A stretch of 64,000 nucleotides of DNA from Bdellovibrionales bacterium (lineage in GTDB: Bacteria; Bdellovibrionota; Bdellovibrionia; Bdellovibrionales; JAUICD01), in contig OZ253553.1 of NCBI GenBank assembly GCA_965262715.1, positions 2,848,001-2,912,000 of the forward strand, written 5' to 3'. The notes beneath the pieces are model-generated. The model worked only from the letters and a program-made list of their open reading frames with translations. It was not told the origin of the DNA and ran no database searches. Positions 15,522 through 60,425 of the stretch are shown here, in pieces. Each line of letters opens with the position of its first letter. Position 1 is the stretch's first letter. The position numbers were made by a program, and so were the translations under genes.

Positions 15522-15713
15522 GTTGTTTCACTAAAAATGAACCAGCCTCTCAAGGCGAGCCTCTCAAGGCGAACCTCTCGAGGCGAGCCTCTGGCTGTTT
15601 TGGGACAGTCAGCTTGACGGTTTACACCGTCAATAAAATGCTGACTGTCTCAAAAATCCGTTCATTTTTAGTAAGGAGACTCCTTTCATTTTTTTACACA
15701 ATGTTAAGGAAAT
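15522..15713 (-). repeat. Structured hairpin element, copy H1 (abuts the recG start codon)
   Basis: Nested stems ctaaaaatgaac/gttcatttttag, gacagtcagc/gctgactgtc, ttgacggt-ttac-accgtcaa; tail acacaatgttaaggaaat; internal 14-bp repeat gcctctcaaggcga x3. Confidence 0.8.
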
Positions 15714-15771
15714 CGTTTTATTTCCCTACCTTATTCTTATTTCCTCTCTTAACAAATTACCTAAATCTTTA

Positions 15772-15956
15772 CTGTTTCCCTAGAAAGCTTGAGGCTCGCC
15801 TCGAGAGGCATTTTTAGGAGGGAGATTCTTTTCATTTTTTAACATAATGTTAAGGAAATCGTTCACTGCCTCACCTTCTATACTCTCTCTTATTAACAAA
15901 TCATCTCAAATCGTAACTCTAAAGATTTTTTCCCCGTCTTTTCTAAAAAAACAACA
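15772..15956 (-). repeat. Internally deleted hairpin-element copy plus extended tail; tail is inverted-homologous to 22616-22835
   Basis: gaggctcgcctcgagagg, tttttaggagggagat and aatgttaaggaaatcg motifs are shared with other copies. Confidence 0.65.
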
Positions 15957-16127
15957 TATCTTCCTAGCTTTCTTTTTTTTATTTTTTTGATGATAAGTGT
16001 TTTATTAACCTTCTACTTCAAGACTTAAGTAAAGTAAATACATTTGCCCATTCGTGTCTGAAACAAAAGAGATTTATTATGATAATATAACCTAAGTAAT
16101 AGTATTTTAATAAGACAGGCAAAAAGA

Positions 16128-18479
16128 ATGGTCATGAAACTTCCCCAATTTATTATTTTTACACTAGCTATCATATTGCTTAATCTTTTTAATGCAAGCC
16201 ATTTTGATGGTGACGGTTTAAAGTCAGGGCTCTATCAAGAGGTATTTGCACAGATCCCAAGCAAAGGTCCTATTATTCCACCACCCCCTTCTCCTAATAA
16301 GGCTTTTACCTCTAATGAATCACCTTCTTCTACAACGAGTGAAACAATGAATAAACAAGATTTTGCTAACGCTTATCCTGAAGATATCACCAATGAGAAC
16401 TTTCCTGACCTTGTAGAAAGCTTTGATTTTAAAAATGCGCATATAAAGGTCGTCACTGAGGCTATTTCAAAACTAACGGGAAGAAACTTTATCATAGATT
16501 CAGCAGTTAATGGAACAATCACCATTATTGCGCCTTCTAGTATCACAGTTGCAGAAGCTTATAAGGCTTTCTTATCAGCACTTGCCATCAATAACCTAAC
16601 AGTAGTTCCTGCAGGCAAATTTTTGAAAGTCACAACTCTTATTAAGGCAAAAGGAAGTAGTGAGGTTTTTTCAGGCACTTATACACCTGATACAGACCAA
16701 ATGATCACTCGTATCATTCAACTAAAGCATTCAAATGTCGCGCAAGTTAGTCAGTTCATCAATAAAGCTGTTTCACCACAGGGTAATCTTCAAAGTTATG
16801 AGCCCACCAACACACTTGTGATCACAGATTTTGGTTCTAAAATTAACAACTTCATGAAAATCATTAGACAAATTGACGAATCTAGTGTAAATGAACAAAT
16901 GGCTGTTATGCCCATTCGATTTGCAAAAGCCAAAGACATTGCTGAGTTATTAGAAAAAATCATTAATAAAGGGCAACCACCACCTAGAGGTGGTCGACCT
17001 AATATTCCTCGATTTAGACAAAAAAAAGGTCGTACAGCTCAGAAAAAAGGTTCTGCCTTTTCACTTGTGCTGCCTGATGAAAGAACAAACTCTATTATTG
17101 TTTTAGCAAATCAACAAGGTATTGCAGAGGTGCGTAGGTTAATTAAACAACTTGATTTTGACATCAATCCAGAAGATGCAGGAGGACTTTATGTCTACTA
17201 TGTCAAACATGCTAAAGCAGAAGATATTGCAAATACAATCAATGGCATTGCTCAGCAATCTAAAAAAGATGCAAAGAGTCGACCTATAATCCCAAGTAAG
17301 ACAAATAGACCTTCTAGTACCCCATCAGGTTCGGTTGGATTCTTAGGAGAAGAAGTCAAAATCACATTTGATGAGCAGACGAATAGCTTGATCATTGCAG
17401 CAAGTCGTCAGGATTATGAGATTGTTTTAAATCTTTTATCTAAAATTGACATCCCTAGAGACCAGGTTTTTGTAGAAGCCATTATTCTTGAAATGAGAGT
17501 CACAGATGAACTTTCTTATGGGTTTAATCTTTTTCAGTTTGCACAAGGCTCAAAAGGACTAGGTAGAATAGGTTTTGGAAGCCCAGATCTTATGACAAAG
17601 ATTACAAATATTGGCACGCCAGGCTTGGTCTTAGGATTTGGAAGAGGAGAAGATGTGAGTATTAGAAATCCACTTGGTACTCCAGCAGAAATAAATGTTA
17701 AATCTATAATGGGATTCATAAATCTTCTTAAAACTGTAACTAAGGTAAATATTCTATCCACACCTCAAATTTTAGCTCTTGATAATGCAGAAGCAGAAAT
17801 TGAAGTAGGGGAAAGAGTTTCCATTGGGCAAAGCAATCAACTAAGTTCTCCAGGCAATCCAATATTACAGAATCCTACCTATGAAGATGCCACTATTAAG
17901 CTTGCCATCACTCCACAAATTAGCTCAGATAAGGAGACTGTGCGTTTAAATATTGATCAACAAATAAAAGAGGTTGTTACTGTTGTTGGTGCTCCTCCAA
18001 ATTTTACTACACGATCTTTAAAGTCTGATGTGGTTGTTCAAAATGGAGATACAATTGTGCTTGGAGGATTAATGAAAGATATAGAAAGGCCAATAATAAA
18101 TAAAGTTCCTATCTTAGGAGATATTCCTATACTGGGTTGGTTATTTAAAAGCAAATCACGTACGATTGATAAGCTGAACCTACTGATTTTTCTCACACCT
18201 CGCATTATACAAAACCGCACAGATGCGAGGGCTCTTTCTGATTTAAAGGTTAAAGAGAGATTGCAGTTTATTAAAGATACAGGAGGCGAAGATTTTCACG
18301 GTCGTAAGATAGAGGAGATCCGCATAGCTAATGCAAGAAACAATGTGGCTACAGAAGACTTGTCAGAAGAAGGCATAGAAGATTTACAAGAAGAAGAATT
18401 ACTAGAAGAAACAGAAAATTATGATGATGATGATAGTCTAGAAGAGGATATAGAAGATTTAGAGAACATAGAGTTATAA
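16128..18479 (+). CDS. gspD: Type II secretion system secretin GspD
   Basis: N0/N domains, QVFVEAIILE, ILSTPQILALDN, KVPILGDIPILGWLFK, LLIFLTPRII. Confidence 0.93.
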   Translation: MVMKLPQFIIFTLAIILLNLFNASHFDGDGLKSGLYQEVFAQIPSKGPIIPPPPSPNKAFTSNESPSSTTSETMNKQDFANAYPEDITNENFPDLVESFDFKNAHIKVVTEAISKLTGRNFIIDSAVNGTITIIAPSSITVAEAYKAFLSALAINNLTVVPAGKFLKVTTLIKAKGSSEVFSGTYTPDTDQMITRIIQLKHSNVAQVSQFINKAVSPQGNLQSYEPTNTLVITDFGSKINNFMKIIRQIDESSVNEQMAVMPIRFAKAKDIAELLEKIINKGQPPPRGGRPNIPRFRQKKGRTAQKKGSAFSLVLPDERTNSIIVLANQQGIAEVRRLIKQLDFDINPEDAGGLYVYYVKHAKAEDIANTINGIAQQSKKDAKSRPIIPSKTNRPSSTPSGSVGFLGEEVKITFDEQTNSLIIAASRQDYEIVLNLLSKIDIPRDQVFVEAIILEMRVTDELSYGFNLFQFAQGSKGLGRIGFGSPDLMTKITNIGTPGLVLGFGRGEDVSIRNPLGTPAEINVKSIMGFINLLKTVTKVNILSTPQILALDNAEAEIEVGERVSIGQSNQLSSPGNPILQNPTYEDATIKLAITPQISSDKETVRLNIDQQIKEVVTVVGAPPNFTTRSLKSDVVVQNGDTIVLGGLMKDIERPIINKVPILGDIPILGWLFKSKSRTIDKLNLLIFLTPRIIQNRTDARALSDLKVKERLQFIKDTGGEDFHGRKIEEIRIANARNNVATEDLSEEGIEDLQEEELLEETENYDDDDSLEEDIEDLENIEL

Positions 18480-18497
18480 AGATTAAGGGTTTTAAAA

Positions 18498-20204
18498 ATG
18501 CCAAATGAAAATATGGAAAGCCTAATCTTTAGATATACAAAAATATCTCGCCCAGAAATTAAAGGGATTTTAGCTCATAACACCAAAAACGGTAAGAGTT
18601 TAGGCGAAATCCTTAGTGAAAGAAAAGAGGGAAAAAAAGATAAAGAAGAATCCATTGATGTTATTTTAGCAACGCTCTCTTATCATCTTAAGCTTGATTA
18701 TATAAAAGATATTCCTATCAATGATATACCTATAGATCTCATTAGAAACCTACCCTTAAAATATGCCACAGACAATGCTATTTTGCCGTACAAATCAGAT
18801 AATCGAGGCATCACCGTCTTGCTATCTAATCCTTTTAATTTAGATATCCTCAATGATCTTAAAGCTTTTTTTGGAAAGAAGATTATTCCAATATTATCTA
18901 CTTCTACTAAGATCCAAGATGCGATCAATAAAGTCTATGAAAAGGGTGCAGCTACTTTTGAGGGGCTTGATGAAATAGAAGAAGAAGAATATGACCTAGA
19001 GGAACCTATCATCGATCTTTTGGAATCTGGAGATGATGATGCTCCGGTGATCAGATTGGTTAATAACTTACTTTTCCGCGCTGTCAAAGAAAAGGCTTCA
19101 GATATTCATATTGAACCCTATGAAAGAGATATGGTTGTACGCTTTCGAATAGACGGTATTCTTTATGATATTTTTAAACCCCCTAAAAAGTTTCAAAATG
19201 CCATTACATCTCGTATCAAAGTGATGGGGCATCTGAATATTGCTGAAAAGAGACTCCCACAAGATGGTCGTATTCCTTTAAAGTTTGCTGGAAAAGACAT
19301 TGATGTGAGGCTGAACACTGTACCCACTGCGCACGGAGAACGCCTGGTGATGCGTTTGCAAGACCGTTCCAATGTGATACTTGAACTAGAACAACTAGGG
19401 TTTCCTAAAGACACTCTTGAAACACTTTCTGAACAGCTTTCTAAAACACACGGTATTGTTTTAGTGACAGGACCTACAGGAAGTGGAAAATCAACAACTC
19501 TCTATGCGGGGCTTATGAAAATCAACTCTGTTGAACGAAATATTATTACTGTAGAAGACCCTGTTGAAAATCGTATTCATGGTATAGGTCAGATCCAAGT
19601 GAACTCTAAGATTGGGTTAACTTTTGCTAATGGGTTAAGAGCTATTTTACGTCAAGATCCGGATGTGATCATGATCGGAGAAATTCGAGATTTTGAAACA
19701 GCTGAGATTGCGATCAATGCATCTCTAACAGGGCACTTAGTGTTATCAACACTACATACAAATGATGCAGCGGGTGCTGTTCCAAGGCTTATGGATATGG
19801 GTTGTGAGCCATTTTTGATCTCTAGCTCCTTACTTTGTATTATTGCGCAAAGGTTGGTCCGAATGCTTTGTCCTCACTGTAAGGTAAAGTACAAGCTTTC
19901 GCAAGAAGATATTGCTACTTTAGGTATCACACCTGATATTGTAGCTAGAAGTAATCCTTTTAAGGCTATAGGTTGCAATCAATGCAATCAAAAAGGGTAT
20001 GTAGGAAGAACTGTGATTTCAGAATGCTTAGTTGTCACAGATGAAATTCGTAAGTTGATCTTAAGAAGACAAGATGGTGGCACAGTCAAGAAGGCAGCTG
20101 TTAGAAATAAAATGAGAACCGTACACTTAGACGGCATTCGAAAAATCCTCACAGGAGTTACTACAATAGAAGAGCTTCTTTCTAATTCTCAAGCTGATGA
20201 CTAA
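18498..20204 (+). CDS. gspE: Type II secretion system ATPase GspE
   Basis: ASDIHIEP, GPTGSGKSTT, LRQDPDVIMIGEIRD, two CxxC motifs; follows gspD. Confidence 0.93.
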   Translation: MPNENMESLIFRYTKISRPEIKGILAHNTKNGKSLGEILSERKEGKKDKEESIDVILATLSYHLKLDYIKDIPINDIPIDLIRNLPLKYATDNAILPYKSDNRGITVLLSNPFNLDILNDLKAFFGKKIIPILSTSTKIQDAINKVYEKGAATFEGLDEIEEEEYDLEEPIIDLLESGDDDAPVIRLVNNLLFRAVKEKASDIHIEPYERDMVVRFRIDGILYDIFKPPKKFQNAITSRIKVMGHLNIAEKRLPQDGRIPLKFAGKDIDVRLNTVPTAHGERLVMRLQDRSNVILELEQLGFPKDTLETLSEQLSKTHGIVLVTGPTGSGKSTTLYAGLMKINSVERNIITVEDPVENRIHGIGQIQVNSKIGLTFANGLRAILRQDPDVIMIGEIRDFETAEIAINASLTGHLVLSTLHTNDAAGAVPRLMDMGCEPFLISSSLLCIIAQRLVRMLCPHCKVKYKLSQEDIATLGITPDIVARSNPFKAIGCNQCNQKGYVGRTVISECLVVTDEIRKLILRRQDGGTVKKAAVRNKMRTVHLDGIRKILTGVTTIEELLSNSQADD

Positions 20205-22185
20205 GTTAGGAAATACTTATGAGGTTGTATTTTACTTATAGCGGTGTTTATGCAGAATTTCCTTAACATTGTGTTAAAAGATAAAAGGAGTCTGTTTACT
20301 CAAAATGAACGGATTTTTGAGGCAGTCAGCATTTTCTTGAAGATGTAAATCTTCAGGCTGACTGTCCAAAAATGACCAGAGGTCAGTTTATTTTGAGTGA
20401 GACAACGAGCTTCTTTCTAATTCTCAAGCTGATGACTAAGTTAGGAAATACTTATGAGGTTGTATTTTACTTATAGCGGTGTTTATGCAGAATTTCCTTA
20501 ACATTGTGTTAAAAGATAAAAGGAGTCTGTTTACTCAAAATGAACGGATTTTTGAGGCAGTCAGCATTTTCTTGAAGATGTAAATCTTCAGGCTGACTGT
20601 CCAAAAATGACCAGAGGTCAGTTTATTTTGAGTGAGACAACGAGCTTCTTTCTAATTCTCAAGCTGATGACTAAGTTAGGAAATACTTATGAGGTTGTAT
20701 TTTACTTATAGCGGTGTTTATGCAGAATTTCCTTAACATTGTGTTAAAAGATAAAAGGAGTCTGTTTACTCAAAATGAACGGATTTTTGAGGCAGTCAGC
20801 ATTTTCTTGAAGATGTAAATCTTCAGGCTGACTGTCCAAAAATGACCAGAGGTCAGTTTATTTTGAGTGAGACAACGAGCTTCTTTCTAATTCTCAAGCT
20901 GATGACTAAGTTAGGAAATACTTATGAGGTTGTATTTTACTTATAGCGGTGTTTATGCAGAATTTCCTTAACATTGTGTTAAAAGATAAAAGGAGTCTGT
21001 TTACTCAAAATGAACGGATTTTTGAGGCAGTCAGCATTTTCTTGAAGATGTAAATCTTCAGGCTGACTGTCCAAAAATGACCAGAGGTCAGTTTATTTTG
21101 AGTGAGACAACGAGCTTCTTTCTAATTCTCAAGCTGATGACTAAGTTAGGAAATACTTATGAGGTTGTATTTTACTTATAGCGGTGTTTATGCAGAATTT
21201 CCTTAACATTGTGTTAAAAGATAAAAGGAGTCTGTTTACTCAAAATGAACGGATTTTTGAGGCAGTCAGCATTTTCTTGAAGATGTAAATCTTCAGGCTG
21301 ACTGTCCAAAAATGACCAGAGGTCAGTTTATTTTGAGTGAGACAACGAGCTTCTTTCTAATTCTCAAGCTGATGACTAAGTTAGGAAATACTTATGAGGT
21401 TGTATTTTACTTATAGCGGTGTTTATGCAGAATTTCCTTAACATTGTGTTAAAAGATAAAAGGAGTCTGTTTACTCAAAATGAACGGATTTTTGAGGCAG
21501 TCAGCATTTTCTTGAAGATGTAAATCTTCAGGCTGACTGTCCAAAAATGACCAGAGGTCAGTTTATTTTGAGTGAGACAACGAGCTTCTTTCTAATTCTC
21601 AAGCTGATGACTAAGTTAGGAAATACTTATGAGGTTGTATTTTACTTATAGCGGTGTTTATGCAGAATTTCCTTAACATTGTGTTAAAAGATAAAAGGAG
21701 TCTGTTTACTCAAAATGAACGGATTTTTGAGGCAGTCAGCATTTTCTTGAAGATGTAAATCTTCAGGCTGACTGTCCAAAAATGACCAGAGGTCAGTTTA
21801 TTTTGAGTGAGACAACGAGCTTCTTTCTAATTCTCAAGCTGATGACTAAGTTAGGAAATACTTATGAGGTTGTATTTTACTTATAGCGGTGTTTATGCAG
21901 AATTTCCTTAACATTGTGTTAAAAGATAAAAGGAGTCTGTTTACTCAAAATGAACGGATTTTTGAGGCAGTCAGCATTTTCTTGAAGATGTAAATCTTCA
22001 GGCTGACTGTCCAAAAATGACCAGAGGTCAGTTTATTTTGAGTGAGACAACGAGCTTCTTTCTAATTCTCAAGCTGATGACTAAGTTAGGAAATACTTAT
22101 GAGGTTGTATTTTACTTATAGCGGTGTTTATGCAGAATTTCCTTAACATTGTGTTAAAAGATGAAAGGAGTCTGTTTACTCAAAA
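20172..22185 (+). repeat. 235-bp tandem array: 8 apparently identical units plus a partial ninth
   Basis: Unit starts gagcttctttctaattctc at 20172, 20407, 20642, 20877, 21112, 21347, 21582, 21817, 22052. Each unit = last 33 nt of gspE + ~52-nt spacer + ~150-nt hairpin element (H2). Confidence 0.95.
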
Positions 22186-22321
22186 TAAACCAACCTCTGG
22201 TTGCTTTCTGGCAATGACCCTGACGGCTAATGCCCTCAGCAAATAGGCCATTACCTAGAAAGTCCGTTTATTTTGAGTAGGCAGATATTCCTCATTTCTT
22301 TACATCATGTTAAGGGAATCG
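22170..22321 (-). repeat. Structured hairpin element, copy H3
   Basis: ctcaaaataaac/gtttattttgag, ctttctggcaatgacc/ggccattacctagaaag, ctgacggc-taat-gccctcag; tail atcatgttaagggaatc. Confidence 0.75.
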
Positions 22322-22518
22322 ATTAAACTTATTTCTAAACTAATCTCATAGAACCTTCTACGTTCTCTATTACTAGATTTAGCAGAGCCTTCAGCCAGGT
22401 TTAATACAATGCTAAGTATAGCTCTTTGGAACTGATTTTTTATTGGTCCTCTTAAGCTTAAATTGTTAGATTTACGATAGAGTTGGGTTGCTAAGTAATA
22501 AGTTTTGAATTTTTTCAT
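22300..22518 (-). pseudogene. Four-helix-bundle protein (23S rRNA IVP / Avd-like fold family), 3'-truncated
   Basis: MKKFKTYYLA...NQFQRAILSIVLNLAEGSAK...ERRRFYEISL. The last helices (GSLREVQ...) seen in the 41268 copy are missing and replaced by hairpin-element tail. Confidence 0.8.
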
Positions 22519-22658
22519 AAAAAGAAATAGAAACATTTTCCCTAACATGTATGTAAAAAGTGAAAGGAGTCTGTTTACTCAAAATGAACGGATTTTTGAG
22601 GCAGTGACGGATGAATTGTTTTTTTAGAAAAAACAGGGAAAAATCTTTGAAAGCCTTG

Positions 22659-22754
22659 ATTTAATATTTTAAGCCAAGCCTCGAAGTCCTCGAGCCGTCG
22701 CTTAGACAGCGATGGCTCTGCGGAAGATCTCGTCTTTGGCTTAAAATATTAAAT
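22659..22754 (+). repeat. Long imperfect palindrome
   Basis: 19-bp perfect IR atttaatattttaagccaa/ttggcttaaaatattaaat enclosing gagccgtcgct-tagac-agcgatggctc. Confidence 0.75.
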
Positions 22755-23139
22755 TTTAACTTGCTATAAAGATTTGAGATGATTTGTTAATAAGAGAGAG
22801 TATAGGAGGTGAGCCAGTGAATGATTTCCTTAATTTGTGTTAAGGAAAATGTTTTCGTTTCTTTTTATTATGCAAAAACTCAGAACAGATCCAGTTTGCC
22901 AGCTTTACCTATATCTTTTTAGGATGCACCCACAAATAAGGGACAAAAATTGTAAGCGCATTACAAAAACTGTAAGCAAGAATATTGCTTAAAACGTTAT
23001 TTTTTTAGCTTATGAATCCTTAAAGTTAATTTTAATCTACTTTCACCAAAATTTGTGACATGAATGAAATTGGCACGAATTTTGGAGTAATAAACAATAA
23101 AGTGATCTAATTATGAAAAACTAAGATAAGGATTTAATA

Positions 23140-24012
23140 ATGATGGAAATATTGAATAGATTAAAAAAACAATCAAAGAAATACTCTAATAAAGTATGTT
23201 TTCTCACTAAGTATGCTGCGTGTTGTTCCTTCCTACTTTTATCAGCTTGTACCTCCGCGCCAACTCCAGAAGAAATCACTGCAAAAGTTTATGAAGAATA
23301 TGGCACAACGCCAATGGCTATAAACAACCTTTCTAAAGGTAAAAAATTACTACCTATTTATGAAGCTGTTAAAAGAAATGATAATGAGGCTGTTAAAACA
23401 TTCTTACAAAATTCAAGGGTCAACCTCTATATCAAGCCTTCATTGCTTATAAGAGCTGCTTACAATGGTAATATAGAAATAGTATCTCAACTTTTAGGAA
23501 AAGGTGTTAGAGTTAATGAACAAAATCATCATGGTGAAACAGCTCTTATTATTGCAACAAGAAAACAACATGCTCGTATTGTAGAAATGTTATTGGAAGC
23601 AGGAGCTAAAACAAATATACAAAATAACAAGGGTACAACAGCACTGATGAAAGCTGTTCTTTCTGGAAACACTCAAGCTACAAACTTGTTATTGAAAGCA
23701 AGAGCTAATCGTAACATACGCAATAATTTCAATAGAACAGCATTGATTTATGCAGTTGCTAAAGATCATGAAGAAATTGCTTTAGAATTGATACAGCCGG
23801 GTATTGACTTAGATGTAAAAGATAAAAAAGGCAATACAGCACTGATTTATGCAGCACAAAACGGCAACCTAAATATTCTTCAAAAACTTATTCAAAATGG
23901 CGCAAGAGTTGAGCTTAACGACAAAGATAAAACAGCTCTTAAGCTAGCAGCTATGAAAGGACACACTAACATCGTTAAGTCTCTCATACAGGCAAATACA
24001 AAAGATTTCTAA
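23140..24012 (+). CDS. Ankyrin-repeat lipoprotein
   Basis: LLSAC lipobox; repeated GxTALxxA...G ankyrin units. Confidence 0.9.
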   Translation: MMEILNRLKKQSKKYSNKVCFLTKYAACCSFLLLSACTSAPTPEEITAKVYEEYGTTPMAINNLSKGKKLLPIYEAVKRNDNEAVKTFLQNSRVNLYIKPSLLIRAAYNGNIEIVSQLLGKGVRVNEQNHHGETALIIATRKQHARIVEMLLEAGAKTNIQNNKGTTALMKAVLSGNTQATNLLLKARANRNIRNNFNRTALIYAVAKDHEEIALELIQPGIDLDVKDKKGNTALIYAAQNGNLNILQKLIQNGARVELNDKDKTALKLAAMKGHTNIVKSLIQANTKDF

Positions 24013-24059
24013 GAAAAACTCTGTCTTATGTTGCTTACTTACAGCTGCAAATACAGATC

Positions 24060-35590: not shown

Positions 35591-36832
35591 ATGTGGGAGC
35601 AACATTGGATATATCTCTATAAAAACATTAGGGTTCTATTTTATTTTTATTGCTTTATTTTTACCTTTGTTTTGGTAAAAGACCTTTTAGCTTCTCAAGC
35701 AAATGATCCAAACTTTCATCAAGATTCTTGCCGTGAGTATGCTAATGGAGAGGAGAGAATCTTATCTGTGCCTTTTGTTGATATAGGGGCTTTTCCTATG
35801 TCTGTGTTTTCGATGCAATGTCATTATAAAATAAAAAGACAAACAAGTCAGACTTACACGGCTTCCATAGCTTTAGAGTTTTCTCCAAGTTTGGCGTACT
35901 TTAATGGGCCTGTCCCCACAGATCAAGTGCATAAACACTATTTGCAAAAAGTAAAAAATTGCATAGCAAAGAGCAATCATAAAATAATAGGGGTAAATGG
36001 AAAACAAATTCTTATTGATATTGAGGATGCTAAGGTAGCAAGAGAAACCAACTCTTCAACACCTCGGCATTCTATTCAAATCCACACTCATTATAATATA
36101 CCATCTTCTTTTAAGAGCTTTAATGCTTATATTGGTTGCCCTTCGATATTTCATGAAATACTGCACTATTTCTGTTTAGGTGATGAATACAGTTTCCATC
36201 TTAGTAACTTTTTTCGCTTAGCATCACAATATACAGAAGATAGACTATTGTTTGATTGCCGAGTGACTCAAACAAATAGCATTATGAGTGATAGTATAAG
36301 ATGGTCAATGGTACTTGATGATCCATTAGATCATGGGTTCCAGTGGCGTTCACCTCTTCATCGCGAAGAGCCTACTTTTTTTAATGAAGATATAGAATAC
36401 TCTCTTCTTGATCCAACACATTTTAATGCTATTCTCTATGGAAATTGTTCAAGTAGGGATGATGTCAGACATTATAGAGAATGTATGCGTTTAGCTTTTC
36501 AAGATTCTAGTTTGAATTTTAATTGCTTAAGTCAAAAACATCAATGTGAAAACTTGAACTTACTAGGCCGTGATAAAAACAAAGAGCTTGCAAGATTATA
36601 TACTGAATCCTATTTGTTACAATTAGATCTTGGGAGGACAAATGAGGATTTAGTAGAAAATCTTTTTAAACGCTTTTCTTATGATCCCTCTAATCATGAT
36701 CTTTCGATATTCCAATATGGATATATAGCGTATGATCATGGATATTTATTATATCTTAAAGAAGGATATGAAAAGGAAATAGAAGAGTTAAATAGAAGAA
36801 TCCATAATGTACAAAACTGGCCTGATGAGTGA
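35591..36832 (+). CDS. Exported hypothetical protein with zincin-like HExxH motif
   Basis: HEILHYFCLGDEY and downstream SIM (Met-turn-like). Confidence 0.6.
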   Translation: MWEQHWIYLYKNIRVLFYFYCFIFTFVLVKDLLASQANDPNFHQDSCREYANGEERILSVPFVDIGAFPMSVFSMQCHYKIKRQTSQTYTASIALEFSPSLAYFNGPVPTDQVHKHYLQKVKNCIAKSNHKIIGVNGKQILIDIEDAKVARETNSSTPRHSIQIHTHYNIPSSFKSFNAYIGCPSIFHEILHYFCLGDEYSFHLSNFFRLASQYTEDRLLFDCRVTQTNSIMSDSIRWSMVLDDPLDHGFQWRSPLHREEPTFFNEDIEYSLLDPTHFNAILYGNCSSRDDVRHYRECMRLAFQDSSLNFNCLSQKHQCENLNLLGRDKNKELARLYTESYLLQLDLGRTNEDLVENLFKRFSYDPSNHDLSIFQYGYIAYDHGYLLYLKEGYEKEIEELNRRIHNVQNWPDE

Positions 36833-36895
36833 CAGTATGAACCGTTAGACTTACTGCCGGAAAGTGGTCAGAGGCAGTTTTATTGAAAATAGCTT

Positions 36896-49393: not shown

Positions 49394-51061
<1,668 letters not shown>

Positions 51062-51079
51062 CTATTACCTTTAATTTAT

Positions 51080-51613: not shown

Positions 51614-52064
51614 CTGTTTCCCTAAAAATAGTCTGGCCTCTGTATCACTAAAGTGCATCTCGTCTGTGTTTCCCTAAAAATAGTCTGGCCTCTGGCCACT
51701 TTCTGGCAGTAAGCCTGACAGTTTACACTGTCAGCAAATAGCTTACTGCCTAGAAAGCCTGACTATTTTTAGGAGGGAGATACTCTTCGCTTCTTTACAA
51801 AATGTTAAGGAAATTGAGCTAAAGTGATTTTTTAGGAAAAAAGATTCTTCAGTTCTGTTTCACTAAAATGCATCTCGTCTGTGTTTCCCTAAAAATAGTC
51901 TGGCCTCTGGCCACTTTCTGACAGTAAGCCTGACAGTTTACACTGTCAGCAAATAGCTTACTGCCTAGAAAGCCTGACTATTTTTAGGAGGGAGATACTC
52001 TTCGTTTTTTTACAAAATGTTAAGGAAATCGAGCTAAAGTGGTTTTTTAGGAAAAAAGATTCTT
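51614..52064 (-). repeat. Two tandem (215-bp period) slightly diverged hairpin-element copies H4a/H4b, each with the grxD 3' end
   Basis: 51640-51849 ~ 51855-52064; stems ctaaaaatagtc/gactatttttag, cagtaagc/gcttactg, ctgacagt-ttac-actgtcag. Confidence 0.88.
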
Positions 52065-52355: not shown

Positions 52356-52379
52356 TTTTTACCTCTTTCTCTGTTTTAT

Positions 52380-52601
52380 TTATTTTATATTAATGGTTAA
52401 TGCATGTATTTCCCCACTTTTAAGTTGCTCTTCAAAAACACTCATAACTAAGCGATGAGAGGCAATTCTCGACATTTTTGATAGCTGGCTACAAGATATA
52501 GTAAGTTGATAATGGTTATTTGTTCCCGTTAAGTCAATAACCTCCATCTTAGTATTAGGATATTGTTTCAAAAAATGCTGTTTAACTTCATCACTTTGCA
52601 T
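52380..52601 (-). CDS. BolA/IbaG family protein (likely start ATG 52601)
   Basis: DLTGTNNHY, RIASHRLV, IHALTI; adjacent to grxD. Confidence 0.88.
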   Translation of the reverse strand: MQSDEVKQHFLKQYPNTKMEVIDLTGTNNHYQLTISCSQLSKMSRIASHRLVMSVFEEQLKSGEIHALTINIK

Positions 52602-52635
52602 ACAAAGCCTCTTGTTATCAACTTTAAAGTAGTGT

Positions 52636-52935
52636 TTATAAATAACTGTGTATTTTATTTTTTTCAAGAACAAAATCCACTGATGTTTTTGTCCCTTTTT
52701 TTATGTTACAACCTTGACAAGAAATAACTATATTTAATTTTGATGAATGGCCTCCTCTTGCAAGAGGTAGTTTATGATCCATTGTCAGCTCATCGGTAGC
52801 AAAGGTTTTTTGACAATAATAACAAATACCTTCTTTGAGCTTTTGTCTCCACCATTTTGTAGACCTTAATTGTTTCGCTTTAAGTCTCTCCTTTTGAAGA
52901 TGAGACTTTGATTGGGGTTTATAAAAAGTTGTCAA
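52636..52935 (-). CDS. Small HNH endonuclease
   Basis: CYYC, LTMDHKLPLARGG, NIVISCQGCNIKK. Confidence 0.88.
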   Translation of the reverse strand: MTTFYKPQSKSHLQKERLKAKQLRSTKWWRQKLKEGICYYCQKTFATDELTMDHKLPLARGGHSSKLNIVISCQGCNIKKGTKTSVDFVLEKNKIHSYL

Positions 52936-53173
52936 AACACAAATCCTTAATTGTTACTTCTAGAGACTCTATTTTATTAGCACTTGCTTTTATAGGGATA
53001 TTATTATACATTTAGCTATCTTGTGTGTTTTTATATATCTCATGATGCTGAAAATGTCAAAAAACAAATAGCTATTTCAATGATTATGATGAGGTGATAT
53101 AATAATATGAATACAAGTCAAAATGAGTGGTACATCTAAAAAATAAAATTCATATATGAGGGTGTTATAATCA

Positions 53174-53773
53174 ATGCAAAATCAAAGACATGCAGACTAT
53201 GTCATAGAAGACCTTAAAAAAGAAACACAAGGCCTTTTAGAGACAGCAGCTCTTACAACATCTTTTGACAAGTTTATGGCTTGGGGGCGTAAAAACTCTT
53301 TATGGCCTCTGCCTTATGGTACAGCTTGTTGTGGGATTGAATTGATGTCAGTCCTAGGTCCTAAATATGATCTGGCTCGCTTTGGCGCAGAGGTTGTAAG
53401 ATTTTCTCCAAGACAATCTGATCTTTTATTAGTGGCAGGAACCATCACAGAAAAAATGGCTCCAGTCTTAATTCATATTTATAAACAAATGTTGGAACCT
53501 AAATATGTGCTTTCTATGGGAGCTTGCGCTAGTTCAGGTGGTTTTTATAGGGCTTATCATGTTCTCCAAGGTATTGACAAAGTGATTCCTGTAGATGTGT
53601 ATGTTCCCGGATGCCCTCCTACACCTGAGGCTGTCCTTGACGGAGTTATGGTTTTACAAAAGATGATTGAAGCTAATAGACCTCGTCCATGGAAAGACAA
53701 CTGGAAGGATACTTGGAAGCCTCATGATTATCAAAAAAGGCAAGATCAAGTGGAATCTTCTCATACAGAATAA
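53174..53773 (+). CDS. nuoB: NADH-quinone oxidoreductase subunit B
   Basis: [31 protein letters not shown]. Confidence 0.96.
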
Positions 53774-53803
53774 TCTTAAAGCAATTACATAAGTAGGAAT
53801 GAA

Positions 53804-55540
53804 ATGAATCATCTAGATGAGATAAGGAAAGATTTAACACATAAGTTTGATGTTTCTCAATTTCAATTTCAAACAGAATGTGATGATGATGTTCTGACAA
53901 TTCCATGCGATCAAGTCTATGGTGTTGTAGAGCATTTTAAAAAAACAAAAAGATTTGATTTCTTGATGGATGTATGTGGAGTTGACTTATTAGAGCACCC
54001 TCATTTCACGTCATCACAGGCAAATGGTTCTACTCAGTCATCAGATGTCTCACAAAAAGGACGATTTCATGTAGTATATCACTTCTTCTCATCTCAGAAC
54101 TTTCATCGCTTGCGGCTCAAAACAAAATTACCATCTCATCCTAAGGTCAAATCAATTACTCCTTTATGGAAAGGAGCTAACTGGTTTGAGAGAGAAGCTT
54201 ATGATATGTTTGGTATTGAATTTGACGGACATCCTTATTTAGAAAGATTGCTAACGCATCATGAATTTAAAGGGCATCCTTTACGTAAAAATTACAGTTC
54301 AGATCAGCAGCAGCATTGCTATTCTGTTAAGCCACTTCATTTTGAAAACGATGCTACATACATTAAAGACCCTCATAAAAACTTTGTTTCTTTAAACATT
54401 GGACCTTCACACCCCGCCACTCATGGAACTTTAAGGATTATGGCAGAACTGGATGGAGAGGTTGTTCATCGAGCTAATGTAGAAATTGGTTTTTTACATC
54501 GCTGTTTTGAAAAAATGGCTGAGACTCATCATTACAATCAAGTGATTCCCTATACAGATAGACTTAACTATTGTTCTGCTCCAATGAACAATGTAGGTTA
54601 TTGCAAAGCTGTTGAAAGATTGCTAGACGTTGAAGTTCCTCCAAAAGCGCAAGCTATTCGCATTGTTTTGTGTGAACTAAGCCGTATTATTGATCACATG
54701 GTGTGTATTGGAGCTAATGCTGTAGACTTAGGAGCACTCACAAGCTTTCTTTATTTGTTTAATATGAGAGAGATGGTCTATGAGCTTTTTGAAAAACTTT
54801 GTGGCGCTCGATTGACGGTTTCTATGACACGTGTTGGGGGCATGGCCAACGATCCACCTGATGGTTGGTTTGATGATGTTTTAGAAACATTGAAAAAAAT
54901 TGAAAAAGGCATTGAAGAAATTGATACACTACTAACTCATAATAAGATTTGGATGAAAAGAACAAAAGGGATTGGCCAAATCACAACAGAAGAGGCTATT
55001 GCTTTTGGATACACAGGTCCTTGCCTGCGTTCTACTGGCATGAATTTAGATTTAAGAAAGGTTATTGGCTATTATGGTTATGACCAACTTGACTTTGATG
55101 TACCTGTAGGAACTTGTGGAGACGTATATGATCGCTACTTGGTTCGTTTAGAAGAAATGAGGCAGTCCATTAAAATTATTAAGCAGGTGGCAAATAATAT
55201 TCCAGAAGGAGACTTTACCATTCGTGATAAGCATATTGTGCTGCCAGACAAAAAAGATGTTTATGGAAATATTGAAGGTTTAATGAACCACTTTATGTTG
55301 GTTATTAAAGGATTAAAACCTCCTCAAGGAGAGTTATACGATATGACAGAGGCTGCAAATGGAGAGCTTGGTTTTTATTTGATCAGTGATGGAGAAGCAA
55401 AGCCTTATCGTTTGAAAGTCAGGCCACCTTGTTTTGCTATTTTTCAATCCTTTGCTAAAGCTATTGAAGGCAGCCTCCTATCTGATGTGGTTGCCATTCT
55501 TGGAAGCATGAATGTTATTGCAGGAGAGCTTGATAGATAA
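53804..55540 (+). CDS. nuoCD: Fused NADH-quinone oxidoreductase subunit C/D
   Basis: ANWFEREAYDMFGI..GHPLRK (C domain); NIGPSHPATHG..GELDR (D domain). Confidence 0.95.
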   Translation: MNHLDEIRKDLTHKFDVSQFQFQTECDDDVLTIPCDQVYGVVEHFKKTKRFDFLMDVCGVDLLEHPHFTSSQANGSTQSSDVSQKGRFHVVYHFFSSQNFHRLRLKTKLPSHPKVKSITPLWKGANWFEREAYDMFGIEFDGHPYLERLLTHHEFKGHPLRKNYSSDQQQHCYSVKPLHFENDATYIKDPHKNFVSLNIGPSHPATHGTLRIMAELDGEVVHRANVEIGFLHRCFEKMAETHHYNQVIPYTDRLNYCSAPMNNVGYCKAVERLLDVEVPPKAQAIRIVLCELSRIIDHMVCIGANAVDLGALTSFLYLFNMREMVYELFEKLCGARLTVSMTRVGGMANDPPDGWFDDVLETLKKIEKGIEEIDTLLTHNKIWMKRTKGIGQITTEEAIAFGYTGPCLRSTGMNLDLRKVIGYYGYDQLDFDVPVGTCGDVYDRYLVRLEEMRQSIKIIKQVANNIPEGDFTIRDKHIVLPDKKDVYGNIEGLMNHFMLVIKGLKPPQGELYDMTEAANGELGFYLISDGEAKPYRLKVRPPCFAIFQSFAKAIEGSLLSDVVAILGSMNVIAGELDR

Positions 55541-55763
55541 GCTTTATACAGAAGAGGGCTAGCAACAGGCTTAAAACTTAAAGGCTTTGATATCGAAAAC
55601 TCTCACTTTTTTACTTCTTAAGGAATTCTACTTACAACTTGAATCCAAAAATCATTATGTAAGTTTTACATCATTATGTAATTTTTACAATTTAAGACGT
55701 TTATCAATCATATTTATTGATAAATGTTCCTTTTCATGTTATTCACTCCTAATATTACTTTTT
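55419..55763. repeat. 345-bp direct repeat, left copy (target duplication)
   Basis: Matches 59848-60192; immediately abuts the IS end cctgacttcgacgg. Confidence 0.92.
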
Positions 55764-55865
55764 CCTGACTTCGACGGTTTAAACTTATAAGTTACTGGGA
55801 TCATTGGATGATACATTACATCATAGGCACTACAATTGATTTTTAGTTATGTATTAAGTGTATTT

Positions 55866-56115
55866 TTATTCAATAAGATAAGGTGTTGTAGAGTGCTTAA
55901 GTCCCATAATCTGATAGATTTTCAGAGCTTCCTTACTTATATTTGAAGGTATAGAGTACTTTCTGTTATTGGTTTGATCTACTAATAAACTATGCTGTAC
56001 ATGGATTAAAGCATTTCGTATAATTTCCGGTGAACAGGCTTCATATTGTATCTTCACTCTGTAAGCTAAGTGTCTTATACAGACTAAACAGATAAAAGCA
56101 ATGGCTATGTGTGCT
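55866..56115 (-). pseudogene. 3' fragment of IS1634 transposase
   Basis: AHIAIAFICLVCIRHL...STTPYLIE with a few substitutions relative to the full copies. Confidence 0.85.
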
Positions 56116-56217
56116 CCTGACTTCGACGGTTTAAACTCATAAGTTACTGGAATCACTAGATGATACATTACATCATAGGCACTACAATTGATTTTTGGTT
56201 ATGTATTAAGTGTATTT

Positions 56218-57879
56218 TTATTCAATAAGATAAGGTGTTGTAGAGTGCTTAAGTCCCATAATCTGATAGATTTTCAGAGCTTCCTTACTTATATTTGAAG
56301 GTATAGAGTACTTTCTGTTATTGGTTTGATCTACTAATAAACTATGCTGTACATGGATTAAAGCATTTCGTATAACTTCCGGTGAACAGGATTGGTATTG
56401 TATCTTAATTCTGTAAGCTAAGTGTCTTATACAGACTAAACAGATAAAAGCAATGGCTATGTGGGCTTTGATTCGATCTGATGTCCAGTGAAATATAGGA
56501 CGTATTTTTAAATCATGCTTAGCTATCCGGAATGTTTCTTCGACTTGCCATAACCCCTTATATTGGCTAATAATGTCTAAATCATCCATATCTTTGAGGT
56601 TTGTTATGACTCCAAACAAACCATCCCACTTTTGATCTTCTTTGACTCGATTTTCATTGACTGAAAGCTTTTGTTTCTTGCCTGTGACTTTTAAATACTT
56701 CTTATAACCGTAATTGTTTAATAAAGTCTTCACATCTTGAGCCTTTGAGAGTTTCTTAACTAAACTATCTATAGTTTGTTGACGATCATGTCGATCTTTC
56801 TCCGCTCTCTTATAAGAATAACAAACTATCACTTTCCTCTTATTATCTTTATCTTCTAATGATTGAATCTTGAAACCTTCTTGTTTACTGACAATTTTGT
56901 ACTTTGACTTATCTAATACAAGCTCTTGTTTTACTTTTGGTAATTTCTTAAGCTTAGCTCCTACAATATAATGAAGATTCTCATCTTCTAGTGCTTTTAA
57001 ATTATCTTCACTTAACATTCCTCTATCAGCGACATAAATAGCTTGTTCTAAGTTATATTTAGACTTCATCTCTTTTATCACTGGATTTAAGGTATGACCC
57101 TCGAAGATAGCACCCGGGAAAGTCTCGTAACTGACAGGAAAACCTTCTTTGGTCACAACGACTGCTAAACACACTTGAGATTCTTTAAACTTAGCATCTT
57201 TACTGTAACCTCTTTGTCTTAAATCATCTTCAATAATTGATTCAAAATACAGTGTCGTACAATCAAAAAACAAAACTTTCAAAGGCTCTTTAAAAACCTT
57301 TTGTGCCACTTGACCTGCCAGTCTCTTTATCTTATCTATCCTTTTGCTATCTAAACGATCCATCATGCGATAAATCTTCTCTAACGAAATATGAACTCCA
57401 AAATCCTCTTCTAAAAATCGACTGCTCTCTCTTTTACTTTGAGGATTAGCTATCCGAGCCATCACTGTATGAAATAAAACCCAATGTGATGAATGATAAC
57501 GACTCACTGGTAAAATGCGATCTAAACCTAATTCCTTGTACATAGCTCCATAAACCTCATGAATACCTACAATGACTCTTTGATCTTCCCTTAGTTTCTT
57601 AAGATCTACTTTTAAGGGTTTATTGCAATGACGAAACTTGGACTCAATCACTTGTTTAGAAATCTCTTCCGGAGCAAAAAAAGATAATTGATTTTCATTT
57701 GTTAGTTTAGCTTTGATGAATTCTCCAAGCTCTTGAAGACGAAATAGCTCATCCTCATCTTGAGCCACTCCGACATGACGGATGATCTTTTGGCGAACTT
57801 TATTGCCATAACGGATAGAATCAACGATCTGAACTGACTGCCTTGGACTGTTTGGTGTGCTTTTGATTCTTACAAACAT
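56218..57879 (-). CDS. IS1634-family transposase
   Basis: FFDCTTLYFE, YVADRGM, WQVEETFR..KHDLKIRPIFHW..RIKAHI. Confidence 0.92.
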   Translation of the reverse strand: MFVRIKSTPNSPRQSVQIVDSIRYGNKVRQKIIRHVGVAQDEDELFRLQELGEFIKAKLTNENQLSFFAPEEISKQVIESKFRHCNKPLKVDLKKLREDQRVIVGIHEVYGAMYKELGLDRILPVSRYHSSHWVLFHTVMARIANPQSKRESSRFLEEDFGVHISLEKIYRMMDRLDSKRIDKIKRLAGQVAQKVFKEPLKVLFFDCTTLYFESIIEDDLRQRGYSKDAKFKESQVCLAVVVTKEGFPVSYETFPGAIFEGHTLNPVIKEMKSKYNLEQAIYVADRGMLSEDNLKALEDENLHYIVGAKLKKLPKVKQELVLDKSKYKIVSKQEGFKIQSLEDKDNKRKVIVCYSYKRAEKDRHDRQQTIDSLVKKLSKAQDVKTLLNNYGYKKYLKVTGKKQKLSVNENRVKEDQKWDGLFGVITNLKDMDDLDIISQYKGLWQVEETFRIAKHDLKIRPIFHWTSDRIKAHIAIAFICLVCIRHLAYRIKIQYQSCSPEVIRNALIHVQHSLLVDQTNNRKYSIPSNISKEALKIYQIMGLKHSTTPYLIE

Positions 57880-57996
57880 AAAAATAATTTAATGCTTATT
57901 AAAAAAAAAGTCAAAATAAAAATAAAAATAATCTGACTTGGTGTGTTACTAGGCACTACATCGAAAACTTACTCCAAAATCCTATAACCATCAATG

Positions 57997-59691
57997 TTAC
58001 AAAACCAATACCAAACTTAAACCGTCGAAGTCAGGAATAAGATAAGGTGTTGTAGAGTGCTTAAGTCCCATAATCTGATAGATTTTCAGAGCTTCCTTAC
58101 TTATATTTGAAGGTATAGAGTACTTTCTGTTATTGGTTTGATCTACTAATAAACTATGCTGTACATGGATTAAAGCATTTCGTATAACTTCCGGTGAACA
58201 GGATTGGTATTGTATCTTAATTCTGTAAGCTAAGTGTCTTATACAGACTAAACAGATAAAAGCAATGGCTATGTGGGCTTTGATTCGATTTGATGTCCAG
58301 TGAAATATAGGACGTATTTTTAAATCATGCTTAGCTATCCGGAATGTTTCTTCGACTTGCCATAACCCCTTATATTGGCTAATAATGTCTAAATCATCCA
58401 TATCTTTGAGGTTTGTTATGACTCCAAACAAACCATCCCACTTTTGATCTTCTTTGACTCGATTTTCATTGACTGAAAGCTTTTGTTTCTTGCCTGTGAC
58501 TTTTAAATACTTCTTATAACCGTAATTGTTTAATAAAGTCTTCACATCTTGAGCCTTTGAGAGTTTCTTAACTAAACTATCTATAGTTTGTTGACGATCA
58601 TGTCGATCTTTCTCCGCTCTCTTATAAGAATAACAAACTATCACTTTCCTCTTATTATCTTTATCTTCTAATGATTGAATCTTGAAACCTTCTTGTTTAC
58701 TGACAATTTTGTACTTTGACTTATCTAATACAAGCTCTTGTTTTACTTTTGGTAATTTCTTAAGCTTAGCTCCTACAATATAATGAAGATTCTCATCTTC
58801 TAGTGCTTTTAAATTATCTTCACTTAACATTCCTCTATCAGCGACATAAATAGCTTGTTCTAAGTTATATTTAGACTTCATCTCTTTTATCACTGGATTT
58901 AAGGTATGACCCTCGAAGATAGCACCCGGGAAAGTCTCGTAACTGACAGGAAAACCTTCTTTGGTCACAACGACTGCTAAACACACTTGAGATTCTTTAA
59001 ACTTAGCATCTTTACTGTAACCTCTTTGTCTTAAATCATCTTCAATAATTGATTCAAAATACAGTGTCGTACAATCAAAAAACAAAACTTTCAAAGGCTC
59101 TTTAAAAACCTTTTGTGCCACTTGACCTGCCAGTCTCTTTATCTTATCTATCCTTTTGCTATCTAAACGATCCATCATGCGATAAATCTTCTCTAACGAA
59201 ATATGAACTCCAAAATCCTCTTCTAAAAATCGACTGCTCTCTCTTTTACTTTGAGGATTAGCTATCCGAGCCATCACTGTATGAAATAAAACCCAATGTG
59301 ATGAATGATAACGACTCACTGGTAAAATGCGATCTAAACCTAATTCCTTGTACATAGCTCCATAAACCTCATGAATACCTACAATGACTCTTTGATCTTC
59401 CCTTAGTTTCTTAAGATCTACTTTTAAGGGTTTATTGCAATGACGAAACTTGGACTCAATCACTTGTTTAGAAATCTCTTCCGGAGCAAAAAAAGATAAT
59501 TGATTTTCATTTGTTAGTTTAGCTTTGATGAATTCTCCAAGCTCTTGAAGACGAAATAGCTCATCCTCATCTTGAGCCACTCCGACATGACGGATGATCT
59601 TTTGGCGAACTTTATTGCCATAACGGATAGAATCAACGATCTGAACTGACTGCCTTGGACTGTTTGGTGTGCTTTTGATTCTTACAAACAT
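57997..59691 (-). CDS. IS1634-family transposase, second copy, C-terminus reads into the adjacent IS end
   Basis: Near-identical to 56218 copy (D->N at WTSxR); tail PDFDGLSLVLVL derives from the terminal sequence. Confidence 0.9.
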   Translation of the reverse strand: MFVRIKSTPNSPRQSVQIVDSIRYGNKVRQKIIRHVGVAQDEDELFRLQELGEFIKAKLTNENQLSFFAPEEISKQVIESKFRHCNKPLKVDLKKLREDQRVIVGIHEVYGAMYKELGLDRILPVSRYHSSHWVLFHTVMARIANPQSKRESSRFLEEDFGVHISLEKIYRMMDRLDSKRIDKIKRLAGQVAQKVFKEPLKVLFFDCTTLYFESIIEDDLRQRGYSKDAKFKESQVCLAVVVTKEGFPVSYETFPGAIFEGHTLNPVIKEMKSKYNLEQAIYVADRGMLSEDNLKALEDENLHYIVGAKLKKLPKVKQELVLDKSKYKIVSKQEGFKIQSLEDKDNKRKVIVCYSYKRAEKDRHDRQQTIDSLVKKLSKAQDVKTLLNNYGYKKYLKVTGKKQKLSVNENRVKEDQKWDGLFGVITNLKDMDDLDIISQYKGLWQVEETFRIAKHDLKIRPIFHWTSNRIKAHIAIAFICLVCIRHLAYRIKIQYQSCSPEVIRNALIHVQHSLLVDQTNNRKYSIPSNISKEALKIYQIMGLKHSTTPYLIPDFDGLSLVLVL

Positions 59692-59847
59692 AAAAATAAT
59701 TTAATGCTTATTAAAAAAAAAGTCAAAATAAAAATAAAAATAATCTGACTTGGTGTGTTACTAGGCACTACATCGAAAACTTACTCCAAAATCCTATAAC
59801 CATCAATGTTACAAAACCAATACCGAACATAAACCGTCGAAGTCAGG

Positions 59848-60192
59848 TCAGGCCACCTTGTTTTGCTATTTTTCAATCCTTTGCTAAAGCTATTGAAGGC
59901 AGCCTCCTATCTGATGTGGTTGCCATTCTTGGAAGCATGAATGTTATTGCAGGAGAGCTTGATAGATAAGCTTTATACAGAAGAGGGCTAGCAACAGGCT
60001 TAAAACTTAAAGGCTTTGATATCGAAAACTCTCACTTTTTTACTTCTTAAGGAATTCTACTTACAACTTGAATCCAAAAATCATTATGTAAGTTTTACAT
60101 CATTATGTAATTTTTACAATTTAAGACGTTTATCAATCATATTTATTGATAAATGTTCCTTTTCATGTTATTCACTCCTAATATTACTTTTT
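59848..60192. repeat. 345-bp direct repeat, right copy (includes duplicated nuoD 3' end)
   Basis: Matches 55419-55763. Confidence 0.92.
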
Positions 60193-60214
60193 AAGATGCA
60201 TAAAACTTATACGT

Positions 60215-60425
60215 CAGAGGCTTGCCTTGAGAGGCGTAATTCATTTTGGTAAAATAATATGATTTCCTTAACATGATGTAAAAAAACGAAGGGAATCTCC
60301 TTACTAAAATGCATCAAGCTTTCTAGGCAATGACCTATTTGCTGATGGCGTAAGACCATCAGGGTCATTGCCAGAAAGTCGCCAGAGGCTTGCCTCGAGA
60401 GGCGAGATGCATTTTAGTGAAAAAA
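60215..60425 (+). repeat. Structured hairpin element, copy H5 (60262-60425), preceded by a terminal fragment
   Basis: ttccttaacatgatgt tail; ctaaaatgcatc/gatgcattttag; ggcaatgacc/ggtcattgcc; ctgatggc-gtaa-gaccatcag. Confidence 0.8.

Follow-up and report, generated by a model that had tools for sequence, protein, structure and literature searches.

A probably selfish non-coding hairpin repeat in a Bdellovibrionales genome: fold, insertion junctions, and a proposed route of spread

The stretch analyzed here (64,000 nt; hereafter the window) comes from the genome of a Bdellovibrionales bacterium (G000; a single contig of 2.94 Mb, 33.6% GC) and carries five loci (H1 to H5) of a dispersed hairpin element of ~143 nt. 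The neighboring genes are housekeeping genes or belong to insertion sequences (IS), and include recG, gspDE, groESL, nuoBCD, ankyrin genes, IS1634, and IS5. The five loci are copies of a real interspersed repeat, which is best explained as selfish and non-coding and as being recognized by its fold and a short invariant 5' motif. An original prediction, made from the sequence alone, had described five loci with a common nested fold, and the loci, their stems, the ~6-nt bulge, and the loops were found where it had placed them. The apical loop is GTAA in H1, H2, H4, and H5, as it had proposed for four of the five loci, and ATTA in H3. The "tail" that it described as shared is present at the loci, but is actually the 5' end (TTTCCYTAACAT) of the strand bearing the G·T pairs.

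H1 (15522..15712, minus strand) is a full element whose small-helix loop holds three fold-back inserts of 14 bp, and its 3' end lies 6 nt ahead of the recG start codon. H2 is a tandem array (20172..22190, plus strand; 8.6 units of 235 bp as assembled), in which each unit consists of 86 bp of host flank, including the end of gspE, the element, and 6 nt. Eight identical elements are present in this array, from 20258-20400 to 21903-22045. The 5' module of a ninth plus-strand unit is joined at the outer stem to H3, forming a head-to-head fusion (22138..22318, both strands) that contains H3 as a full minus-strand element (22176-22318). H4a (51671..51813, minus strand) lies upstream of groES, and together with H4b (51886..52028, minus strand), also a full element, it forms a 215-bp tandem duplicate. 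H5 (60263..60420, plus strand) is a full element with one 14-bp fold-back insert, followed by an array of 14 units of 25 bp as assembled (60403..60752, plus strand), each made of the 3' arm of H5 and 7 nt of flank. Window positions 12000-20150, including H1, were matched without differences by contigs (three overlapping pieces) from three runs of a single sample that may be the source sample, and no empty-site joint was seen in these contigs.

The element begins with the invariant 12-mer, followed by a less conserved stretch of ~28 nt and then by the paired region. The outer stem (P1) has 14 bp. The long arm consists of a 6-bp helix, one bulged A, a 10-bp helix, the ~6-nt bulge, and an 8-bp apical helix closed by a GNNA loop. 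Between the outer stem and the middle stem sits a fourth helix, small (5 bp) and closed by an AGA loop; the fold is a three-way junction. The 3' end reads TTTAGKGA, followed by a weak AACAG tail. Copies were parsed in the source genome (115/211) and in a congener (G001, 156/212), and the single bulged A is near-invariant among them (270/271). Of 319 copies, at least 196 had a GNRA loop and at least 63 a GNYA loop, so the loops are GNNA rather than strictly GNRA. When four copies were folded as DNA, z ranged from -6.9 to -8.8 on the element strand and from -5.5 to -8.1 on the other strand, and none of 200 shuffles was as good as the real copies.

Pairing was assessed in 319 distinct full copies that were aligned without structural filtering. 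The 11 pairs with the highest corrected mutual information were all helix partner pairs, and 11,833 of the 12,875 stem cells (91.9%) were Watson-Crick. With one conserved T·G at the stem foot (292/319 copies) left out, the remaining 1042 cells included 326 G·T and 184 A·C. The window copies agree with the prediction that most non-Watson-Crick positions are G·T pairs on one strand, but in the family as a whole G·T makes up just 31% of such cells. A modest one-strand bias was still observed, as G·T exceeded A·C in 66 vs. 13 copies of the source genome and in 70 vs. 22 copies of the congener. In a smaller set of 56 copies (4 from the window, 49 from the congener, and 3 from G004, a sister-genus genome; relatedness uncorrected), 97.3% of cells paired and double-sided changes occurred at 25 of 43 pairs, with pairing inflated because the 49 congener rows were picked from 95 that had passed a structure-anchored parse. 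The covariation score of this set was 0.420, compared with 0.177 for shuffled and 0.05-0.09 for slid alignments.

Most helices of the parsed copies exist as 5-17 versions with perfect pairing, and in 19 of 20 rows an arm was predicted best by its partner arm, suggesting that helices are exchanged as units. In addition, 33 of the 115 parsed copies of the source genome carry 14-bp fold-back inserts. Template switching between arms could yield compensated pairs through mutation alone. Such switching would tend to erase bulges, yet the bulged A is kept, from which we infer that the fold is selected at the copying step. Selection on a single-stranded structure, as originally proposed, agrees with the compensatory changes that keep the fold and with the favored strand. 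However, the claim that conservation of structure sets this element apart from known bacterial repeats was not supported, since compensatory changes are described for REP doublets forming hairpins (REPINs; PMC3116915) and for bcr1 (PMC3184786). Its identity as a non-coding RNA was not supported either, as the low G·T content and the GNYA loops suit DNA equally. The real distinguishing marks are the junction anatomy and the missing enzyme.

The source genome contains 503 profile matches, 309 of them full length, at 235 loci that cover 2.1% of the genome, and only 2 of the 235 loci lie in predicted open reading frames (ORFs). The congener is denser, with 468 matches covering 7.0% of 720 kb. Among 384 genomes of the order, a pattern for the 3' end matched 164 times in the source genome, 731 times in the congener, and 3 times in G004, and nothing was found in the other 381. 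A covariance model found the element in 3 of 101 genomes, and a pattern search of genome contigs gave at least 80 matches, all of them, among the matches listed, in the congener. The G004 matches sit on three small contigs (C1, C4, C11) that are 85-90% identical to the source genome and 66-68% identical to G003, the second sister-genus genome (1.6 Mb, 97.8% read), while another G004 contig (C6) is G003-like. On these identities, the element-bearing contigs are probably foreign to the G004 bin and derive from a congener of the source organism. As the original prediction had stated, no known family was recognized, and Rfam gave no match at the gathering threshold. A pattern with 142 matches in the source genome found nothing in viral or metagenome contigs, and no match to the element was seen in phages or plasmids. 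No paper on this family was found in the literature searched (supplements outside the search), and the accessible part of a review on transposable elements of the miniature inverted-repeat type (MITEs) says nothing about it (PMC10969869).

G003 lacks the element (best E 0.28) but has a hairpin repeat of its own, of ~125 nt and with 223 matches, whose 5' motif is CCTTGAAC; it too forms arrays and has junctions of the same kind. The own contigs of G004 contain a related family consisting of GCTGGGCAAC, a variable stem, and GAAGACCTT; it was found 11 times in 57 kb, and its short form matched 45 times across the genome and just once in the 150 other genomes searched. These two families are homologous by profile (E 6e-4 to 0.1). 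Homology of the main element to the G003 family is unproven, because the covariance model finds the G003 repeats only at E > 0.2, and any kinship of the main element with the two families is a matter of terminal resemblance only. The terminal motifs of G003 and G004 also suggested a ribozyme of the hepatitis delta virus type; this idea was rejected, as the best pairing of upstream partners for P1 and P2 in 66 G003 copies was no better than in shuffled sequences. A second long-hairpin repeat (family B) occurs in the window at 22611..22760 (plus strand). It is ~145 nt long with a covarying apical stem, and 37 of its 44 near-full copies in the source genome adjoin the element; it was not found in G003 nor in the 720 kb of the congener.

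High copy number, turnover between genomes, and empty versus filled paralogues bear out the prediction that the element is mobile. In the source genome, 14 of 26 empty/filled rows were used; the 12 dropped were six of a shorter derivative family, one mixed-orientation locus, and five with repeat flanks. These rows showed a 25-bp duplication (one row), a ~63-bp duplication (two rows that probably reflect a single event), and deletions measuring 1-5, 2, 2, 3, 8, 14, 18, and 19 bp and of 23-26 bp (three rows, probably one event). All five rows of the congener were used, giving deletions of 3, 14, 42, and 51 bp and one 10-bp overlap, in which the target resembles the element's own 3' end. For the G003 family, four of five rows were usable, with deletions of 1-47 bp. 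Overall, the paralogues revealed neither a fixed target nor a fixed duplication, and between 2 and 27 foreign bases lay between the target and the 5' motif, compared with 0-6 at the 3' end. We take these junctions to exclude DDE transposition with fixed duplications and conservative site-specific recombination.

The two ends of the element differ. The 3' boundary is sharp (TTTAGKGA plus 0-9 nt) and the 5' leader is variable; one fixed end and one variable end with flank capture is a feature of the IS91/ISCR type. In the first units of tandem arrays, GTGA plus 2-9 nt is joined to a point 30-86 nt upstream without microhomology. At 7 of 107 loci of the source genome, the element is flanked by direct repeats that start no more than 10 nt from its 3' end, compared with 0.23% of shuffled pairs. 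Another piece of the element follows 223 of 390 3' ends in the congener and 62 of 269 in the source genome, and the starts of these pieces cluster at positions 118-132, 98, 79, 64-69, and 35, near helix boundaries. Such pieces are also found in the window, where 5'-truncated 3'-end pieces of other variants are stacked behind H4a (51614..51670, minus strand). Many 5' ends are preceded by 3'-truncated pieces. Copies of the element also served as targets, with insertions both within and behind them. Copies that are nearly identical but lie far apart have 36-124 nt of upstream flank in common, beyond which they diverge. In the congener, a precise junction to position 12/13 recurs in 55 contexts.

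In the source genome, tRNA 3' ends are directly followed by the element more often than ORF ends are (7/38 vs. 79/2187, p 5e-4), and constraint by the tRNA could explain part of this enrichment. It is joined in antisense to the tRNA CCA, within 2-6 nt, at 5 of 38 tRNAs of the source genome, and similar joins were found in 3 cases in the congener and at 4 of 34 tRNAs in G003.

No cognate enzyme had been noticed in the window, and indeed none was found nearby nor, as far as tested, elsewhere in the genomes. The following counts refer to G000, G001, G003, and the own contigs of G004, in this order: reverse transcriptase (RT) 3/0/0/0, Y1 HUH 1/0/0/0, Y2 HUH 0/0/0/0, IS110 DEDD transposase 0/0/0/0, tyrosine recombinase 2/2/0/0, Cas1 6/5/2/0, IS1634 41/10/0/0, DDE_Tnp_1 54/3/0/0, and Rpn 19/16/16/0. 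The Y2 search had a positive control, G232 (L316, L320), a 3-Mb genome with 80 matches to IS91-family transposases. G003 and G004 had no tyrosine recombinase match, hence no recognizable XerC/D. The RTs of the source genome are of the group II intron and retron St85 kinds and are not preceded by the element, and its sole Y1 protein belongs to an IS200 with its own ends. A 590-aa retron St85-family effector-RT fusion was noted in L003 (1282-3054), behind tRNA-Asp. No multi-copy transposase was found among the G003 proteins, and no gene, including any RAYT (REP-associated tyrosine transposase), was flanked by the repeat in all genomes. A screen for HUH, YxDD, and primase motifs gave no candidate among 916 proteins common to G003 and G000, of which 21 were Pfam-scanned. 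Of the mobile-enzyme families tested, only a small serine resolvase was shared by the four genomes. It is present in all five genomes of the family, without repeat flanks in G003 and only distantly flanked in G000. Precise serine recombination is unfit for ragged junctions, and this resolvase is a weak candidate partner.

We tentatively favor a route, judged a little less than probable, in which a folded single strand of the element is pasted by primed synthesis with template switching, using host enzymes or an unannotated protein; the template may be RNA or DNA, with the lack of RT tipping the balance toward DNA. The element would be released or exposed as a folded single strand, and at nicks, gaps, or stalled forks it would be pasted by DNA synthesis that is primed and switches templates. 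Where this synthesis halted or re-entered at helix junctions, stacked pieces truncated at the 5' end would result. If it returned upstream of the point of departure, a duplication would arise, and if downstream of it, a deletion; recombination between the resulting direct repeats could generate arrays. The same route would also yield the polar boundary, the fold-back inserts, and the self-targeting. The enzymes involved may be host replication and repair proteins or an unannotated lineage-specific protein, and no known transposase.

Several observations weigh against this template-switching route or limit it. Neither an intermediate nor an enzyme was found. The congener was covered for 720 kb out of 2.57 Mb and G004 for four contigs, genome completeness by markers was 90-99%, and IS3, IS30, IS256, IS630, and IS1595 were outside the profile searches of the relatives. 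Flanking direct repeats are rare (1/61 loci outside the source genome). Since the paralogue pairs are just 75-98% identical, some deletions may post-date insertion, and several rows represent one event. In the comparison of leaders with donors, most exact matches were paralogues of the same insertion. Targets were not enriched for hairpin feet (p 0.16, 0.52), so hairpin-foot targeting was rejected. Younger copies paired better in the congener (rho -0.35), but this was not seen in the source genome (rho +0.12). In addition, identical copies in the congener may come from gene conversion, and the element at the end of a CRISPR array (short palindromic repeats, clustered and regularly interspaced) has the same junction in both congeners, but a locally typical core.

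Second in rank, though unlikely, is a retroposon resembling short interspersed elements (SINEs). Read-through transcripts would be cut back to a stable folded RNA, and target-primed reverse transcription would then copy this RNA into nicked DNA. Non-LTR (long terminal repeat) retroposons and SINEs have a fixed 3' end, and their retroposition leaves variable duplications or deletions, 5' truncation, a sharp 3' end a few nt past the stem, and carry-over of the 5' flank; the repeats of Nannocystis resembling multicopy single-stranded DNA (msDNA) offer a further comparison. The junction traits of the element match this pattern, and the one-strand G·T bias, the GNRA majority among loops, and the antisense joins to tRNA CCA are also in favor. 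However, unlike SINE or msDNA-type systems, three of the four genomes (G001, G003, and G004) gave no RVT_1 match, and the group II intron and retron RTs of the source genome lack the element upstream. G·T accounts for only 2.5% of stem cells, and about one fifth of the loops are GNYA.

A REPIN- or MITE-type element, moved by an HUH enzyme (RAYT/IS200/IS91) or another enzyme that was lost or transient, with junctions blurred by decay, appears improbable. The likeness to REPINs is considerable, as these are hundreds of extragenic hairpins with compensatory change that form tandem arrays and cluster in or beside their own copies, according to the accessible part of the source (PMC3116915). The strand-specific bulged fold suits an enzyme acting on single-stranded DNA, the invariant 12-mer could be a nick site, and the recurrent junction at position 12/13 is precise. 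However, the element has no RAYT, and it is an asymmetric three-way junction with a single-sided unpaired 5' module of 40 nt instead of two inverted REPs, with long variable duplications and deletions at its junctions. Y1 was absent from G001, G003, and G004, the sole Y1 of the source genome serves its own IS200, Y2 was absent from all four genomes with a positive control, and no repeat-flanked gene was common to all genomes. Near-identical dispersed copies in G001 and G004 also argue against this reading. The bcr1 repeat of Bacillus cereus is similar in size (~155 bp), in its branched fold with compensatory changes, and in positions that vary between strains; the accessible part of its description (PMC3184786) reports 5-bp direct repeats each time, and by this description alone it differs from the element, which has no fixed duplication.

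It is still less likely that the element is maintained by the host as a regulatory element or small RNA, such as a terminator, an RNA stabilizer, or a protein-binding site. Its nearly exclusive intergenic location, its enrichment at tRNA 3' ends, and its retention at the end of a CRISPR array in both congeners would fit such a role. However, its position next to orthologous genes is not conserved between G000 and G001 (Fisher p 0.11 and 0.80, 344 orthologues), there is no orientation rule relative to genes or replichores, genes are interrupted by it (a four-helix-bundle gene) and by the G003 family (four Rpn genes), and it makes up 7% of the congener DNA read.

Two further readings are very improbable. 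The first, in which the element would be a MITE belonging to the IS1634 family or to some other DDE transposase, is largely refuted. IS1634/IS1549 elements produce long target duplications of variable length, as stated in the accessible part of the source (PMC2266710). IS1634-family elements are present in both congeners; those at window positions 55763-59910 (two tandem copies) and at other sites of the source genome have duplications of 50-294 bp, and the element ends form a 9-bp imperfect inverted repeat. However, IS1634 ends are precise and begin with CCTGA, while the element ends are ragged and unrelated, matching no end of the nine multi-copy IS groups with listed ends in the source genome; deletions outnumber duplications, with no target-site duplication of fixed length, and the analogous repeat thrives in G003 without any IS1634 or DDE_Tnp_1 gene. 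The second makes Rpn (YhgA-like) nucleases the specific partner that supplies nicks: RpnA leaves 3'-OH ends that can prime polymerase, with template switching proposed (PMC5350276), and G000, G001, and G003 each have 16-19 Rpn genes when any Rpn occurs in only 12 of 201 genomes of the order, but the own contigs of G004 have the related repeat (at least 45 copies) without Rpn, 20 kb from each of four other Rpn-rich genomes contained no dense short repeat (low power), and adjacency to Rpn was not enriched in G000 (9/39).

Other candidates were rejected on more specific grounds. Integron attC sites also have a strand-specific fold, an extrahelical base, and a replaceable interior, with RYYYAAC/GTTRRRY boxes. 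The element differs in having no conserved AAC/GTT triplet, a variable inner end of the outer stem, no cassette arrays, and no integron integrase. An IS91/ISCR derivative and an IS110/bridge RNA system were set aside because Y2 and DEDD transposases, respectively, were not found in any of the four genomes. Insertion by a casposon or Cas1, which would be expected at the leader end with the whole repeat duplicated, was rejected, as G004 has no Cas1 and the CRISPR insertion is leader-distal with 24 of 28 nt duplicated. A 594-aa G003 protein considered as an RT proved to be a housekeeping gene product, a Xer/dif reading found neither a dif-like site nor support, and loss of SbcCD was dismissed because sbcD is present in G000.

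What is new here is the analysis of junctions, the sister hairpin families, and the enzyme exclusions, and together they leave the mechanism unusually constrained. The spread of small bacterial repeats has been settled only where a partner transposase is known. In the reduced genome G003, hundreds of structured repeats exist without a multi-copy transposase, and their junctions are unlike those made by transposases; this leaves host enzymes or a small number of unannotated genes as the candidates to search. A broader possibility, which we regard as doubtful, is that one Bdellovibrionales family is host to a superfamily of selfish hairpins that have no enzyme and are built of short conserved ends around an exchangeable stem. 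They would lack a transposase, recombinase, or RT of their own and would reach hundreds of copies by hijacking template switching of the host polymerase (or a host polymerase that acts on RNA). If true, such hairpins would be to bacteria what SINEs or templated-insertion parasites are elsewhere, and their spread would represent a new kind of bacterial mobility. The repeats fill up to 7% of the DNA read, occupy rearrangement-prone positions, break genes, and replace tRNA trailers.

Three smaller remnants of the element were found in the window. An internally deleted copy with the 5' motif, the outer stem, and a short interior lies upstream of H1 (15777..15858, minus strand; E 1e-6), a 3'-truncated fragment covers element positions ~1-67 (22537..22603, plus strand), and a decayed 3' fragment is located at 36830..36880 (plus strand).

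Several host loci carrying these repeats were also noted. The G003 repeat interrupts four Rpn genes (contig C1, positions 1482322, 863285, 1530949, and 561523), and at least three of these insertions lie immediately upstream of an internal ORF, possibly the small antitoxin form. In G000, 11 paralogous small genes (e.g., C1 660279-660578), which we take to encode four-helix bundles, are in some cases interrupted by the element, and 6 of the 11 adjoin it (p 0.004, uncorrected). The leader-distal end of a CRISPR array bears the element in both congeners (G000, C1 476742-490607; G001, C1 369547-369689), with 24 of the 28 repeat bases duplicated; two orphan repeat-element-repeat units occur in G000, and the element also lies within a Cas12a array of G001. 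G000 has five CRISPR-Cas loci, which were assigned by eye from translations to a compact divergent type I-like, an I-E-like, a Cas12a-like, a 1644-aa Cas9-like, and a type III system. Elsewhere in G000, four tandem tRNA-like units precede tRNA-Trp (C1 2198524-2198863), and long cysteine-rich repeat proteins of a multi-copy family are encoded at window positions 3625-8868 and 16-979.

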